DNA from: Candidatus Omnitrophota bacterium
Lineage (GTDB): Bacteria > Omnitrophota > Gorgyraeia > Zapsychrales > JBAZNR01
Assembly: GCA_041649175.1 (NCBI GenBank)
Contig: JBAZNR010000003.1
Location: 207,449 to 271,448 of the forward strand
Reading direction: 5' to 3'
DNA length: 64,000 nucleotides
Part shown: piece after piece, positions 6,313-37,910 of the stretch
How the letters are laid out: each line of letters starts with the position of its first letter
Position numbering within the stretch: position 1 is the stretch's first letter
The notes under the pieces: generated by a model
What the model was told of the DNA's origin: nothing
What the model saw: the letters and a program-made list of their open reading frames with translations, nothing else
Databases searched by the model: none
Position numbers and translations under genes: made by a program

Positions 6313-6410
6313 ACTCGATTGATAAGGGCAAACCATCCGAAAGGATGGGACGCAAAACTATAGAGTCCACACCTTTGGCGCAAGTCAAAGACGGATAGTC
6401 AGTTGCCGGT
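6313..6410 (+). promoter_or_regulatory. c-di-GMP-I (GEMM) riboswitch aptamer
   Basis: Near-identical to the conserved GEMM-I core 'GGCAAACC-AUCC-GAAA-GGAUGG-GACGCAAAAC'. P2 is a perfect 6-bp stem with a GAAA tetraloop. A P3 hairpin (ACUAU..CC..CUUUG-loop-CAAAG..GG..AUAGU) and a P1 closing stem (CGAUUG/CAGUUG) follow; TTGACA lies at 6287. Confidence 0.7.
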
Positions 6411-6426
6411 TGGGTTTTTTTATGGC

Positions 6427-6459: not shown

Positions 6460-6479
6460 GGCGTTGGAGATCGTTTGAA

Positions 6480-6526
6480 GGCGCCTGCCCTTATCATAGC
6501 CACGGAAAGGGCAGGCGCCTTTTGTT
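6480..6526 (+). terminator. Second terminator-like hairpin immediately upstream of the RBS
   Basis: Perfect 13-bp stem ggcgcctgccctt/aagggcaggcgcc with a 14-nt loop, followed by ttttgtttt. Confidence 0.5.
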
Positions 6527-8611: not shown

Positions 8612-8635
8612 TAGAAATTTTAAAGAGAAGTGTAA

Positions 8636-8675
8636 AGAGCGGCTCCGGCAAAACGCCGGAGCCGCTCTTTTTTTA
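8636..8675 (+). terminator. Rho-independent terminator
   Basis: Perfect 13-bp stem agagcggctccgg/ccggagccgctct with a 7-nt loop, followed by 7 T. Confidence 0.8.
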
Positions 8676-14234: not shown

Positions 14235-15203
14235 ATGAAAGAATCTCCACTATTTTGGCCGGTGCAGTTTAAAGGAAGTTATTTTCTCGTTTTAGACGAG
14301 ACATTGATTCCCAAAAAACTTCACTATGTAAAAGTGGATAGCGTCAAAGCGGCGGTGGACGTTATCCGTCAGATGAAGACGCGCGCCTTTGGACAGTTTT
14401 TGGTTGTATTAAGCACATTTTTGGTTGTTCTTAAAAAAAGCGAGAAAAAAGACTCTGGGCAGCTTTTTGAAGCTCTTCAAAAAGCTGCCCAAGCCCTAAA
14501 CGCCAGCCGTCCGACTTTTCCGTTTTCTGAAGTGACGGGAATGGTTTTGCATTGGGCCAATCAAGCTCTTCAAGAAAAAAAAGATTTGGTATCGTTTTTG
14601 GAAAAGAATATTAACGGATTTTTATCCGGAATTCGCGCACGTCGTTTGGAACGAGTAAATCGTATTGCCGAATTAATGAAAGAGGGAAGTCGTGTTTTAA
14701 CACATTGTAATGTGAGCGGTGAGCTCGCCATGGCAGCATCCATTTGTCAGGAGCAGAAAAAACAAATTAGCTTTTTTGCTACAGAAACGCGTCCTTTTTT
14801 ACAAGGTGCTAAATTAACGTGTTGGGAACTGCAAAGAATAGGCGCTGACGTGACGTTGATCGCTGATAATGCCATCGGAACTTTGTTCGGCAATCACCTG
14901 ATCGATATGGTGATCGTCGGCTCTGATCGTTCCTGCGCTAACGGAGATTTTGCCAATAAGATCGGAACATATCAAATCGCTGTTTTGGCCAAAGAATTCA
15001 ATGTTCCGTTTTATGCCTTAACTCAGCCGTCGAATAAAATTCCCAAAGGCGACGATATTCCTATTGAAATTCGCGATGAGAAAGAATTATTAGAATTTAA
15101 CCGTAAGCGCATTGCCCCAAAAGCAGTGAAAGGTTTTTATCCGGGATTTGATGTCGTTACGCGCGATTTTATTAAAGAGGCCATTGCCATCAATGTTAAT
15201 TAA
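14235..15203 (+). CDS. mtnA: 5-methylthioribose-1-phosphate isomerase-like (MtnA/eIF-2B family)
   Basis: 'VLTHCNVSGELA', 'TETRPFLQGAKLTCWEL', 'VIVGSDRSCANGDFANKIGTY', C-terminal 'YPGFDVVT' are hallmarks of the eIF2B/MtnA fold. Confidence 0.65.
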   Translation: MKESPLFWPVQFKGSYFLVLDETLIPKKLHYVKVDSVKAAVDVIRQMKTRAFGQFLVVLSTFLVVLKKSEKKDSGQLFEALQKAAQALNASRPTFPFSEVTGMVLHWANQALQEKKDLVSFLEKNINGFLSGIRARRLERVNRIAELMKEGSRVLTHCNVSGELAMAASICQEQKKQISFFATETRPFLQGAKLTCWELQRIGADVTLIADNAIGTLFGNHLIDMVIVGSDRSCANGDFANKIGTYQIAVLAKEFNVPFYALTQPSNKIPKGDDIPIEIRDEKELLEFNRKRIAPKAVKGFYPGFDVVTRDFIKEAIAINVN

Positions 15204-28956: not shown

Positions 28957-29328
28957 ATGATGATGCGAAATATTTTCTTAAGTATTTTCCTTATTGTAAA
29001 TAGCGGTTGTGCGGCGGCCATTGTTGGCGGCGCGGCCGTGGGCGCTGTTGCGGTTTCCCAGGATTTTGCCACCACCTCGGTGGATGTCAATTACAAAAGA
29101 GCCTGGAGCATTGCTAATGAACAATTAAAAAAGATCGGGGAAGCGAAGCGCACATTCCAAAAGATCGGCGAGATCAATGCCATCGTGGAAGGCTCAACCG
29201 TGCGCGTGAAGATCTCAAAGCTGACCGAGCGCACCGTAGATATAAAGGTGTCCGCTCGAAAAAATATGCTGCCGAATACAGAACTGGCGCAGACGATTCT
29301 TGCGGCAATTCTACGTAAACTTCAATGA
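28957..29328 (+). CDS. Lipoprotein, hypothetical
   Basis: Lipobox 'VNSGC'. Confidence 0.45.
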   Translation: MMMRNIFLSIFLIVNSGCAAAIVGGAAVGAVAVSQDFATTSVDVNYKRAWSIANEQLKKIGEAKRTFQKIGEINAIVEGSTVRVKISKLTERTVDIKVSARKNMLPNTELAQTILAAILRKLQ

Positions 29329-29332
29329 GCAA

Positions 29333-29600
29333 GCCCAGCACTAATTTTGCCATGTATTATGTATACGTATTAAGAAGCAAAGCTGACAACCAATTGTACT
29401 ACGGCTATACCAATAATATCGAAAGGCGATTTGCGGAACACAATATAGATTTTGAATGGGATTTGATTTATTATGAAGCTTTCTTCTCTGAAAAAGATGC
29501 GCGGTTACGAGAGCGAAAGCTAAAAGATTATGGGCAATCAAGAACTCATCTTAAAAATAGAATTCAACATTCTTTGAAAAGACAAAATTAGTGCTGGGCA
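29333..29600. repeat. Pair of perfect 16-bp inverted repeats (gcccagcactaatttt / aaaattagtgctgggc) bracketing the GIY-YIG ORF; identical to the rrn terminator stem arms
   Basis: Left arm 29333-29348, right arm 29584-29599; the same arms form the hairpin at 37731-37770. Confidence 0.85.
29352..29591 (+). CDS. Small GIY-YIG nuclease-family protein (COG2827/UPF0213-like)
   Basis: 'YYVYVLRS...QLYYGYTNNIERRFAEHN' GIY-YIG motif; about 80 aa; the ATG at 29352 is preferred. Confidence 0.75.
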   Translation: MYYVYVLRSKADNQLYYGYTNNIERRFAEHNIDFEWDLIYYEAFFSEKDARLRERKLKDYGQSRTHLKNRIQHSLKRQN

Positions 29601-29630
29601 TTTCCGGAAATAAAAAAACGGAGAAATGAA

Positions 29631-29915: not shown

Positions 29916-31169
29916 ATGTTGAAAAAAATCGTTTTGTTTAGAGGGATTATTATTTCTGGAGCTATCTTGTTTCTTGGTGGCTTGACTGCCTTTAGTCAAG
30001 ATGCACCTAAGATGGATAAAGTGGATTTTGTTAAGAAAATTAAGGAAGTGAATGCGATCTACACGAGGTTACAAGAAAGCCAGCCGAATCTTTATTTTGA
30101 GAAGAATTTCAACCATTCGACCGTTGGAACTACTTATCGTAAAGGGAAGTATCTTGTTAAAAAAATGTGCTCTCAGTCGACATCTGGACAGACTGCTTGC
30201 TTTCCTTTAATAATTAATATTATCGATCCAGATAAAAGTTTACGCGACATCTATCCCTCTAAGGTGTTTTGCTCATCAACAAGTTCCTCTGTGCCAGGTG
30301 AAAAACTGGCTCCATTTTCTACTTGTCTCGATGGAGGACAGCTGTTTATTTTTCCTGGCGCAACGGATGATTTCAAGCTACTTCGTTTTCATGAAGATGA
30401 CTTATATGACAATCGTAATGTTTGGATTACAGAATTTATTTCTGAAGGCAGTATAAATAAATATGTGTTCGATCAAGAAACAGGTTTGTGTCTCTTGGAA
30501 CAAGAAGCAAGTAAGGATGGAATGATTTTAAATGTAATATCTAGAGAAAATATAACAACAAATTCATCTAAAGATCCAGTAAATCTCGATGGGATTATTG
30601 GGGAGAAATTGACAGAGTATCAGCGCCAAAAGATAGCACAAGACAAGAGTGTAAAAAGATCCCAGAAAGAATCCACAAACACATTTTGGTTTTCTTTAGC
30701 TCTGATAATTCTTTTTACCACAATATATCTTCTGCAAATGAGAACTTTCTATAAAAGCTGGCTTTTTATTCTATTGTTTTGGGTTGTGGGGGGCGTTGAT
30801 ATTCTTTTGGGTGGGTTTTGCGCATTGGTAGTTATTTTCTCACTATTAGCTAACTCATCTCTGAGCGGTATTGGAGGCGCGATACTGCCGATTTATGTTG
30901 GAATTGCGTTTTTTTTGTTAGCAGGCATAGGACTCTTTGCAAAGAATAGCTTTTTAAGGAAAATCAGTTGGTGGCTTCATATCGCTTCCTCTTTAATTGT
31001 AGTTTTTTTGACTTTCATTGCATGGATATCTTTAGGTCAAGACGCAGATATCTTTGCAATTCTTATTTGGCCTTTTGGCTGGGCAATCTTTACTGCTATT
31101 CTTTTCTTAACACCGACTATTACAAAGTATTTCTTTGAAGACTCTTCTGAGAAATCACCTAAAGCTTAA
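29916..31169 (+). CDS. Membrane protein: secreted N-terminal domain plus C-terminal multi-TM region, hypothetical
   Basis: Signal peptide, soluble domain of about 240 aa, then 5-6 TM helices. Confidence 0.4.
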   Translation: MLKKIVLFRGIIISGAILFLGGLTAFSQDAPKMDKVDFVKKIKEVNAIYTRLQESQPNLYFEKNFNHSTVGTTYRKGKYLVKKMCSQSTSGQTACFPLIINIIDPDKSLRDIYPSKVFCSSTSSSVPGEKLAPFSTCLDGGQLFIFPGATDDFKLLRFHEDDLYDNRNVWITEFISEGSINKYVFDQETGLCLLEQEASKDGMILNVISRENITTNSSKDPVNLDGIIGEKLTEYQRQKIAQDKSVKRSQKESTNTFWFSLALIILFTTIYLLQMRTFYKSWLFILLFWVVGGVDILLGGFCALVVIFSLLANSSLSGIGGAILPIYVGIAFFLLAGIGLFAKNSFLRKISWWLHIASSLIVVFLTFIAWISLGQDADIFAILIWPFGWAIFTAILFLTPTITKYFFEDSSEKSPKA

Positions 31170-37606: not shown

Positions 37607-37723
37607 CTCGGTAACATTACTAGAGGGGCAACACCCGTTCCCATACCGAATACGGAAGTTAAGCCCTCTAAGGTCGATGGTACTCTAGTCGTAAGGCTAT
37701 GGGAGAGTAGAAAGTTACCGGGT
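37607..37723 (+). rRNA. rrf: 5S ribosomal RNA
   Basis: Helix I CUCGGUAAC/GUUACCGGG; 'CCGAAUACGGAAGUUAAGC' loop C/helix III region; length about 117. Confidence 0.8.
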
Positions 37724-37730
37724 TAATTTA

Positions 37731-37776
37731 GCCCAGCACTAATTTTGACTTTGTCAAAATTAGTGCTGGGTTTTTT
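37731..37776 (+). terminator. rrn operon intrinsic terminator
   Basis: Perfect stem gcccagcactaatttt / aaaattagtgctggg with a 9-nt loop, followed by 6 T. Confidence 0.85.
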
Positions 37777-37910
37777 ATTTGCCTTCGCTGTAAAGCGAGA
37801 AGGCGAATCCCGACGAGTGTGGTGAAATTATCAAAGAGAATTTCGCCGCAGATTACGAGTCGGGGTAGTTTTGCTTAATTTCACCTTCCCAAAATTCCCA
37901 AAAAACTTCC

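Follow-up and report, generated by a model that had tools for sequence, protein, structure and literature searches.

A GIY-YIG nuclease gene enclosed by the two arms of a palindrome in Candidatus Omnitrophota: a probable self-contained nuclease-plus-hairpin cassette

The window examined here (the whole stretch of DNA that was analysed, 64,000 nt in length) belongs to a Candidatus Omnitrophota MAG. Between its DUF3568 and PC4 genes lies a small GIY-YIG open reading frame (ORF) bracketed by the two arms of a palindrome (Table 1). Reading of the sequence and pattern search place GCCCAGCACTAATTTT at positions 29333–29348 of the forward strand and its exact reverse complement at 29584–29599, as an earlier sequence-only reading of this DNA had described; the true length of the inverted repeat is 17 nt (29333–29349 and 29583–29599), with the arms 233 nt apart. 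GCCCAGCACTAATTTT is found again at 37731–37746 (+) and 37756–37771 (−), the latter with one mismatch at its outermost base. The four matches in the window compare with an expectation of 0.06, and none of 100 shuffled sequences reached four. A relaxed scan of the 64-kb window recovered two copies of the palindrome only, namely, the cassette and an arms-only copy after the 5S rRNA gene, and none in shuffled sequences.

Table 1. Features of the palindrome-enclosed gene and of the second palindrome copy in the window.
Feature	Position	Strand	Remarks
AATGAG	29324..29329	+	Matches the terminal motif of the larger composite of relatives; includes the TGA that ends the upstream DUF3568 gene
Left arm GCCCAGCACTAATTTTG	29333..29349	+	Holds the family outer motif CCCnnCAC; stops 2 nt short of the ATG
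GIY-YIG ORF, 79 aa, MYYVYVL...KRQN*	29352..29591	+	Start is the conserved MYYVY
Right arm CAAAATTAGTGCTGGGC	29583..29599	+	Exact reverse complement of the left arm; TAG stop (29589–29591) inside
5S rRNA	37607..37723		Directly before the arms-only hairpin
Arms-only palindrome copy	37730..37772	+	20-bp stem, 3-nt loop; begins 7 nt past the 5S rRNA
T-run (TTTTTATTTG region)	37773..37782	+	Turns the post-5S copy into a canonical intrinsic terminator

The same reading had proposed a GIY-YIG protein of about 80 aa with its stop codon in the right arm, and both points are borne out. The 79-aa protein matches the Pfam GIY-YIG family (PF01541, E = 1.2e-11, residues 1–63), has no second domain, and contains the conserved residues Y5, Y16/Y17-G18, R26, H30, and E54. 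Gene callers report an 88-aa version of the ORF, which begins at an in-frame ATG at 29325 that overlaps the DUF3568 stop codon. In an AlphaFold2 model (pLDDT 89), the 79-aa protein adopts the GIY-YIG fold, with a three-stranded sheet and helices, and its nearest solved folds are UPF0213 BH0048, Slx1, and the catalytic domain of I-TevI. A Foldseek comparison of this model with the PDB returned generic GIY-YIG neighbours only, and the best solved relatives by profile are UPF0213 proteins (E = 6.6e-6). A homolog search with the 417-aa downstream neighbour returned only itself. The further assemblies available for this organism are identical and so offer no empty site.

The post-5S copy forms a stem of −31 kcal/mol (z = −8.4) that is followed by TTTTTTATTT, and it is the top terminator-like site of the region. 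It combines a stem-loop, a U-run directly after it, and a position at the end of a transcription unit, as expected of an intrinsic terminator. Because the U-run follows the stem, we interpret this arms-only hairpin as the intrinsic terminator of the rrn operon. The sequence-only reading had derived this terminator from the very same two arms; the terminator is borne out, but its right arm is not identical to that of the cassette, as it ends in T instead of C (16/17 identity).

A protein search returned more than 140 close relatives, from Omnitrophota, Patescibacteria (CPR), and Fidelibacterota, and at E ≤ 1e-10 the family comprises 630 clusters (50 per cent identity). Its members are single-domain proteins of 77–94 aa, and the cassette ORFs are intact and have the conserved GIY-YIG residues. 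A metagenome scan confirmed 489 encoding loci, 80 of which were fetched for analysis. When the best inverted repeat near each ORF was sought blindly, about 74 of these 80 loci proved to have one of at least 13 nt, perfect or nearly so, that closely encloses the ORF. After duplicates had been removed, 65 distinct loci were left, and with the arms then anchored on their outer motif, the gene is bracketed in 62 of the 65 distinct metagenome loci. Typically, the left arm ends a few nucleotides before the start codon, and the right arm starts a few nucleotides from the stop codon or overlaps it; in two loci (L192 and L195), each arm is a hairpin in itself. Two other loci (L016 and L226) have arms identical to those in the window, though their proteins are only 64 and 68 per cent identical, respectively, to the window protein. 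The frame relation to the right arm is equal in all three (TAA AAT TAG in L016 and L226 versus CAA AAT TAG in the window). These observations uphold the earlier suggestion of a hairpin-associated selfish or mobile GIY-YIG cassette, with its mobility judged from sequence comparison. A tblastn search of 72,556 plasmids with the GIY-YIG protein gave no match, no relatives were found in viral contigs, and the 16-mers in viral contigs are unpaired chance matches only, leaving a viral vector for the cassette without support.

About 22 arm types occur among the 62 bracketed loci (e.g. ACCCAGCACTAATTTT, ACCCAGCACTTATTTA, ACCCCACACCCAGC, ACCCCGCACCTTT, and CCCCTCACTTGGAAAG), and CCCCTCACTTGG is another arm type of the cassette family. 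Arm positions C2–C4, C7, A8, and C9 (CCCnnCAC / GTGnnGGG) are invariant or nearly so, and the remaining positions vary on both arms together through paired substitutions. Specifically, 97.4 per cent of cells are paired, both sides have changed in 11 of 14 pairs, and 144 compensated cells are present versus 35 expected (a value that none of 500 shuffles reached), with positions 10–14 only serving as the unbiased covariation test, as the anchoring itself demanded pairing of the outer 9-mer. Paired changes of this kind are also expected if a dimer recognizes the arms as double-stranded DNA or if selection acts on an RNA stem.

The palindrome is also widespread without the gene. A scan of one genome per species (596 Gb) for the 16-mer identified at least 120 loci, with about 280 chance matches expected. 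Among the matches listed, the 16-mer is single and unpaired in SAR116, Nostoc, Flavobacterium, and similar taxa, and 46 loci have a reverse-complement partner 3–158 nt downstream. The paired loci belong to Omnitrophota, with the complete Velamenicoccus archaeovorus genome among them, to Planctomycetes-labelled bins, and to CPR, and the full 15–16-mer is identical between Omnitrophota and CPR. In the negative control, all 18 matches in viral contigs are unpaired. Several related genomes each contain at least seven exact 16-mer loci, and 46 of 49 palindromes are in intergenic DNA, both among the matches listed. The search for further copies called for by the sequence-only reading was therefore productive, and the ORF-less copies, being multi-copy in Omnitrophota and CPR and largely intergenic, agree with its suggestion of a REP-like palindrome linked to the gene. 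A different outcome had also been envisaged, in which the 16-mer is a generic terminator stem and orthologous loci always contain the ORF. Instead, orthologous loci are at times ORF-less, and among the matches listed a T-run follows only 5 of 49 copies, because of which we regard the terminator role as an exception for this palindrome.

Arms-only hairpins near a cassette share its arm type: hairpins of the cassette's own type number 10 in 62 loci, in comparison to 8 in 804 tests with other types. The centres of arms-only hairpins are not recognizable as decayed ORFs, since neither a DNA profile nor a six-frame protein HMM scored them above shuffled sequences, with limited power for centres of 18–160 nt. 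Therefore, the arms are the conserved module, and the cargo varies. The centres of the CPR hairpins had no Rfam match at E ≤ 1. Many Omnitrophota have the core palindrome embedded in a larger mosaic that consists of AATGAGG, an ACTTAYGG-type hairpin, CGAATTnA, the core, TnAATTCG, a second hairpin, and CCTCATT, and the termini of this mosaic are sharp with or without the GIY-YIG gene. No direct repeats that would indicate a target-site duplication were found around 19 distinct composites or around the rRNA insertions. The outer ACTTAYGG hairpin modules of relatives were not found in the window. The AATGAG upstream of the window cassette may be what is left of that outer module, but a 6-mer may also match by chance.

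To compare filled and empty states of the window locus, we used syntenic loci that were reached via homologs of the upstream DUF3568 protein and that have the gene order SDR, DUF3568, X, PC4, ..., Amidohydro_2, where X is the variable segment. The comparison was made on raw junction sequences, and a MAFFT alignment was set aside, as it force-aligned the spacers to the ORF. The DUF3568–PC4 site is filled in the window and in L226/L227; in the latter two, X is the full composite with the GIY-YIG gene, which begins precisely at the DUF3568 stop codon and ends at the Shine-Dalgarno sequence of PC4. A plain spacer (122 or 51 nt) that lacks arms, hairpin, ORF, and any shared motif makes up X in L224/L225 and L228, and in L222 X is an unrelated insert. 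Since the empty sites are devoid of any arms, the arms and the ORF have been gained or lost there as one unit. Among orthologs of this locus, the unit is thus either complete or missing altogether. The distribution of the cassette is patchy relative to DUF3568 identity, and this pattern could result from either repeated gain or repeated clean loss. We infer the mobility of the cassette from this presence/absence polymorphism and not from a mechanism.

Both palindrome copies of the window are outside of 23S rRNA helices (one is intergenic and one is past the 5S rRNA), but relatives of the cassette are found inside 23S rRNA genes. An all-against-all comparison yielded alignments of the window's 23S rRNA gene with six GIY-YIG loci and with one locus that has arms only. 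Rfam places cassettes within 23S rRNA genes, on the rRNA strand, in five loci (L189, L190, L193, L199, and L200), and L198, whose entire length is identical to L199, is counted as the sixth rRNA-borne locus. In Escherichia coli numbering, the cassettes replace helix tips at positions ~542–549 (L193, L199, and L189), ~1169–1182 (L200), and ~1705–1751 (L189 and L190), so that the 23S rRNA gene of L189 has two intact cassettes. Positions ~540 and ~1170 correspond to helices 25 and 45 (H25 and H45), the classical sites of intervening sequences (IVSs) processed by RNase III, and ~1705–1751 to H63. At ~1169–1182, three states coexist: an arms-only hairpin in L193 and L102, arms with the ORF in L200, and unrelated native helices in the window, L199, L189, and L190. 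L193 and L199 are ~95 per cent identical, yet they differ in their state at this position. The sequence-only reading had raised the possibility that a resident hairpin was split by insertion of the ORF, with an intact hairpin as the empty site. Such arms-only sites do exist at H45 (L193 and L102), but the empty DUF3568–PC4 sites have no hairpin, and a split of a resident hairpin is unsupported at the window locus.

The cassette sits co-directionally in host transcription units, 23S rRNA helix tips included. Of the upstream neighbours, 43 of 46 are read in the direction of the cassette, as are 42 of 43 downstream neighbours, and each of the six rRNA-borne loci is co-directional with the 23S rRNA. 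In predicted RNA folds of the cassette, the arms form a 17-bp stem that shuts in the whole ORF, in the minimum free energy (MFE) and centroid structures alike. The gap between the left arm and the ATG is too short for a promoter or a Shine-Dalgarno sequence, and therefore the cassette most likely rides on read-through transcripts of the host.

Among characterized systems, the window cassette looks most like a variant of the Ssn nuclease-plus-hairpin systems, to which we liken it by architecture. Ssn proteins are single-domain GIY-YIG proteins, such as the 94-aa SsnA of Neisseria meningitidis (Chenal et al., Nat Commun 2025, PMC11893778). They bind the NTS/SRM hairpin repeat only as single-stranded DNA (ssDNA) and cut a few nucleotides upstream of it, and four tested homologs cut ssDNA beside their own hairpin (PMC11893778). 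The family is defined by the cd10448 clade or by a BLASTP match to SsnA (CAX49033.1) with E < 1e-10 and 75 per cent coverage, and its cleavage is site-specific, double-stranded DNA and RNA being left uncut; SsnA has no entry in the PDB. The repeat numbers hundreds of copies and also flanks the ssn genes, and the authors point out the insertion sequence (IS)-like 'NTS-ssnA-NTS' architecture and its analogy to REP/RAYT (PMC11893778). Similarly, the protein described here is a single GIY-YIG domain of less than 150 aa (79 aa in the window), 62 of 65 loci have a hairpin-forming repeat on either side of the gene, and nuclease and repeat types co-vary. Two copies of the repeat are present in the 64-kb window, and in related genomes it is multi-copy and mostly intergenic among the matches listed. 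However, the published SRM motif, HGTCWYN(0-2)YYVSBRHN(0-5)WNVSBRGN(0-2)RNCYNB, matches none of the 65 loci within 500 bp on either side of the gene (the NTS control does match), which rules out that the cassette repeat is a canonical SRM. The architecture differs as well: the gene is placed between the half-arms of one palindrome, which abut its start and overlap its stop, whereas ssn genes are flanked by complete short hairpins. Furthermore, the cassette protein is shorter and lacks the stretch that separates the YIG motif from the catalytic Glu, and Omnitrophota and CPR hosts and a 23S rRNA helix location are absent from PMC11893778. Because of the mismatch to the SRM motif in all 65 loci and the outcome of the tblastn search of 72,556 plasmids, we consider that the protein may have branched off independently from the UPF0213/Slx1-like group.

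By analogy, the cassette may also act like REPIN/RAYT. Inverted copies of its own palindrome enclose a single-copy nuclease gene here, as they do in REP/REPIN-RAYT systems (Nunvar 2010; Bertels & Rainey 2011; Ton-Hoang 2012). The arms-only hairpins resemble REPINs, which are non-autonomous inverted doublets with a spacer that are amplified across the genome, and the arrangement of AATGAGG, ACTTAYGG hairpin, CGAATTnA, and core palindrome resembles the mosaics of BIMEs. The cassette is not a member of this group, however, as it has no HUH (Y1) transposase. RAYTs are HUH/Y1 transposases that form a covalent DNA intermediate, whereas the cassette protein is predicted to be a hydrolytic GIY-YIG nuclease and therefore could not use the strand-transfer chemistry of RAYTs. 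With the 'peel-and-paste' elements IS200/IS605, the cassette shares hairpin boundaries, no target-site duplication, and, likely, an ssDNA logic; those elements, in contrast, have subterminal, non-identical hairpins and an HUH transposase in place of perfectly inverted terminal arms and a GIY-YIG nuclease. Insertion sequences with terminal inverted repeats differ from the cassette in that the latter has no target-site duplication.

The rRNA-borne relatives invite comparison with 23S rRNA IVSs, since cassettes or arms-only forms replace peripheral helix tips in L189, L190, L193, L199, L200, and L102. The window cassette, unlike an IVS, is intergenic and outside of rRNA, and the ORFs of classical IVSs encode members of another family, the 23S rRNA-intervening sequence protein, not GIY-YIG. 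GIY-YIG ORFs have been reported in insertions in CPR rRNA genes, where all of them are in non-intron insertions and never in introns and seem to be outside of a homing context (Tsurumaki et al., J Bacteriol 2024, PMC11270868). Inverted-repeat arms, arms-only copies, and a link to Ssn-type hairpins are not reported in that study, and our literature search found no description of a GIY-YIG gene enclosed by the arms of a split palindrome.

How should the association of the gene with its arms be explained? Classical homing, in which the GIY-YIG protein would cut both strands of an intact arms-only palindrome and repair would copy the ORF into the loop, would make the arms-only copies vacant homing sites instead of non-autonomous elements. 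This scenario has some appeal. At H45, arms-only hairpins (L193 and L102) and a filled site (L200) are of the same arm type; cassettes and nearby arms-only hairpins share their arm type locally; and GIY-YIG is a known homing-endonuclease fold, with the I-TevI catalytic domain among the structural neighbours of the protein. The cassette shares with homing endonucleases such as I-TevI and the Seg proteins not only the catalytic fold but also a selfish lifestyle with presence/absence polymorphism. We nevertheless consider homing unlikely. At the window locus, the empty orthologous sites have no arms and no recognizable target, which means that arms and ORF come and go together, and the centres of arms-only hairpins vary from 2 to over 100 nt and show no ORF remnants. 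The cassette has neither an intron nor an intein, and its protein, a single domain of 77–94 aa across the family, does not have the DNA-binding extension that characterized GIY-YIG homing enzymes need (PMC11893778). Finally, the GIY-YIG insertions in CPR rRNA genes have been placed outside of a homing context by Tsurumaki et al. (PMC11270868).

Alternatively, selection could act on the arms as a stem in RNA (a site of RNase III processing, a terminator, or a stabilizer) that allows any insert to be excised or tolerated in host transcripts, with the GIY-YIG gene as a passenger that does not recognize them. Several observations fit: replacement of the 23S rRNA helix tips at ~542–549, ~1169–1182, and ~1705–1751 is always on the rRNA strand, ~95 per cent of cassettes are co-directional with their neighbours, the ORF is closed off by the arms in MFE and centroid RNA folds, the rrn copy is predicted to work as a terminator, and short non-intron insertions at known RNase III IVS sites have been reported in CPR (PMC11270868). 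As a full account, however, we find this explanation improbable. RNase III and terminators need structure and not sequence, yet the outer motif CCCnnCAC hardly varies between arm types or phyla, and Omnitrophota and CPR have the full 15–16-mer in identical form; these features therefore point to a sequence-specific reader. Moreover, the arm type follows the local GIY-YIG gene, and a T-run is found in only 5 of the 49 copies among the matches listed. Selection on RNA is compatible with the nuclease-plus-arms explanation and can coexist with it as a second layer. A further possibility is coincidence, with the gene flanked by the 5' and 3' halves of a common terminator-like stem that serves mRNA stability and has no meaning for mobility or as a nuclease target. 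The identity of the stem-loop to a working terminator 8 kb away in the same window is in agreement with this idea, but the four occurrences of the 16-mer versus 0.06 expected are not. Recurrent bracketing in 62 of 65 loci from many organisms, covariation of the arms, and insertion polymorphism at orthologous sites rule it out, and we give it almost no credence.

We therefore favour the explanation in which 29333–29599 is a complete copy of a compact, self-contained cassette of nuclease and arms that is widespread in Omnitrophota and CPR, and we consider it likely to be correct, with the action of the nuclease on the hairpin proposed by analogy. Points that weigh against it are the small number of palindromes in the window (two in 64 kb), the mismatch to the SRM motif, the patchy occupancy of the DUF3568–PC4 site, which clean loss could explain as well as gain, and the absence of a target-site duplication or any other transposition footprint from the loci compared. 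If the protein behaves as the characterized Ssn nucleases do, it would recognize the hairpin that the arms form in ssDNA and nick the DNA beside it. The gene would be permanently linked to its own recognition site, as RAYT genes are to REP/REPIN, and the arms-only hairpins would correspond to non-autonomous copies that are acted on in trans. For its expression, the cassette would depend on read-through transcription by the host.

The nuclease-plus-arms explanation joins two observations that have been separate so far, namely, Ssn nucleases with their genome-wide hairpin repeats, described in 2025, and the unexplained GIY-YIG ORFs in CPR rRNA genes. It would extend the idea of a nuclease with a cognate hairpin to Omnitrophota and CPR and to a class of repeats missed by the published motif. 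The architecture is clean, with a nuclease gene of ~240 bp inside its presumed recognition site, and natural empty, arms-only, and filled alleles make the spread of REP-like repeats directly testable. The ~22 co-varying arm types, each with its own cassette protein, are a ready panel of candidate sequence-specific ssDNA nucleases. More tentatively, ultra-small bacteria could harbour, in this cassette, a previously undescribed class of autonomous mobile elements, in which a minimal GIY-YIG nuclease mobilizes its own hairpin and the arms double as an RNA processing stem. Were this possibility to prove true, the element would be a hydrolytic-nuclease counterpart of REPIN/RAYT or IS200/IS605, its RNA-processing arms would let it settle harmlessly in operon spacers and rRNA helix tips, and it would account for the puzzling non-intron GIY-YIG insertions in the rRNA genes of CPR bacteria.

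The composite elements, larger mosaics known from many Omnitrophota in which the core palindrome lies between two further hairpins, have sharp ends of the form A(A/G)TGAGG...CCTCA(T/C)T. A stop codon adjoins the left end or is supplied by it. A Shine-Dalgarno (SD) sequence (xAAGGAGG) stands directly at the right end in 9 of the 19 distinct cases, and in 4 more the right end lies no more than about 5 nt from an ATG. The composites seem to fill stop-to-SD spacers exactly; no target-site duplication was seen at their ends in the 19 distinct cases, and the terminal CCTCATT is similar to the anti-SD sequence.

Positions of the features discussed, in window or locus coordinates
Feature	Locus	Positions	Remark
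12-nt palindrome	window	29600-29611	
Perfect hairpins	window	14456-14491, 8634-8670, 6478-6521	15-17 bp, short loops
c-di-GMP-I-GGC aptamer	window	6318-6411	
Two GIY-YIG cassettes in 23S gene	L189	599-853 and 1998-2228	one at E. coli ~542-549, other at ~1705-1751
23S gene (Omnitrophota)	L102	1-3017	minus strand
Spacer insert	L222	3376-3591	
Spacer insert	L223	907-1448	
PC4-to-Amidohydro_2	L224	3856-5449	
PC4-to-Amidohydro_2	L228	3823-5136	
PC4-to-Amidohydro_2	window	29916-31169	
CPR palindrome	L028	5059-5208	
CPR palindrome	L045	5786-5936	
CPR palindromes	L051	5829-5973 and 3347-3534	
CPR palindrome	L056	5026-5170	
CPR palindrome	L076	3233-3385	
Aptamer-element-metK	L056	5391-3965	minus strand
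Aptamer-element-metK	L051	5621-7490	
HNH-motif ORF	L051	6067-6579	
Sharp-ended composites	L012, L016, L062, L066, L073, L095, L101, L121, L124, L147, L154, L157, L160, L161, L166, L174, L177, L226		

In the window, a 12-nt perfect palindrome, ATTTCCGGAAAT, followed by an A-run, lies directly 3' of the right arm of the GIY-YIG cassette (the nuclease ORF with its inverted-repeat arms) and bears a loose resemblance to the composites' TnAATTCGG linker. Further perfect hairpins of the window have no sequence kinship to the cassette arms and are probably ordinary terminators. The window also carries a c-di-GMP-I-GGC riboswitch aptamer (62.3 bits, just over the gathering score of 59).

Two intact cassettes with different arm types occupy a single 23S rRNA gene in L189. 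The 23S gene of L102 has two arms-only hairpins (the palindrome without the ORF; E. coli ~616 and ~1170) and, in addition, large inserts of about 120 nt (E. coli ~156-170), 180 nt (~542) and 123 nt (~1498).

The spacer downstream of DUF3568, which holds the cassette in the window, contains an unrelated insert in another relative (L222/L223), bounded by a direct repeat, AAGGTACGTGTCCCCGGAAnTTT, whose two copies lie about 150 nt apart; the PC4 gene was not called there. The spacer appears to be an insertion hot spot that receives different inserts. The stretch from PC4 to Amidohydro_2 differs among relatives: L224 and L228 carry ORF6N/Phage_pRha-like and AbiEii/NTP_transf_5 genes there, the window an orphan membrane protein (417 aa).

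Two loci from Sungiibacteriota and Saccharibacteria genomes (L056 and L051) share the order SAM riboswitch aptamer, palindrome-bounded element, metK; in L051, an ORF with an HNH motif is squeezed between element and metK. In Patescibacteria (CPR) genomes, the same arms, CCCAGCACTAATTTT and AAAATTAGTGCTGGG, surround centres of 115-158 nt, which have in common a small module folding as a three-way junction: a closing stem rich in GC, one GGCC-GAATA-GGCC-type and one CCC-TATAT-GGG-type hairpin, and CGAAG. From copy to copy, changes in the hairpins are compensatory, the centres have z-scores of -2.6 to -6.2 (DNA folds), and no Rfam family matched them at E<=1. Such centres may represent a third type of cargo, one that is non-coding.
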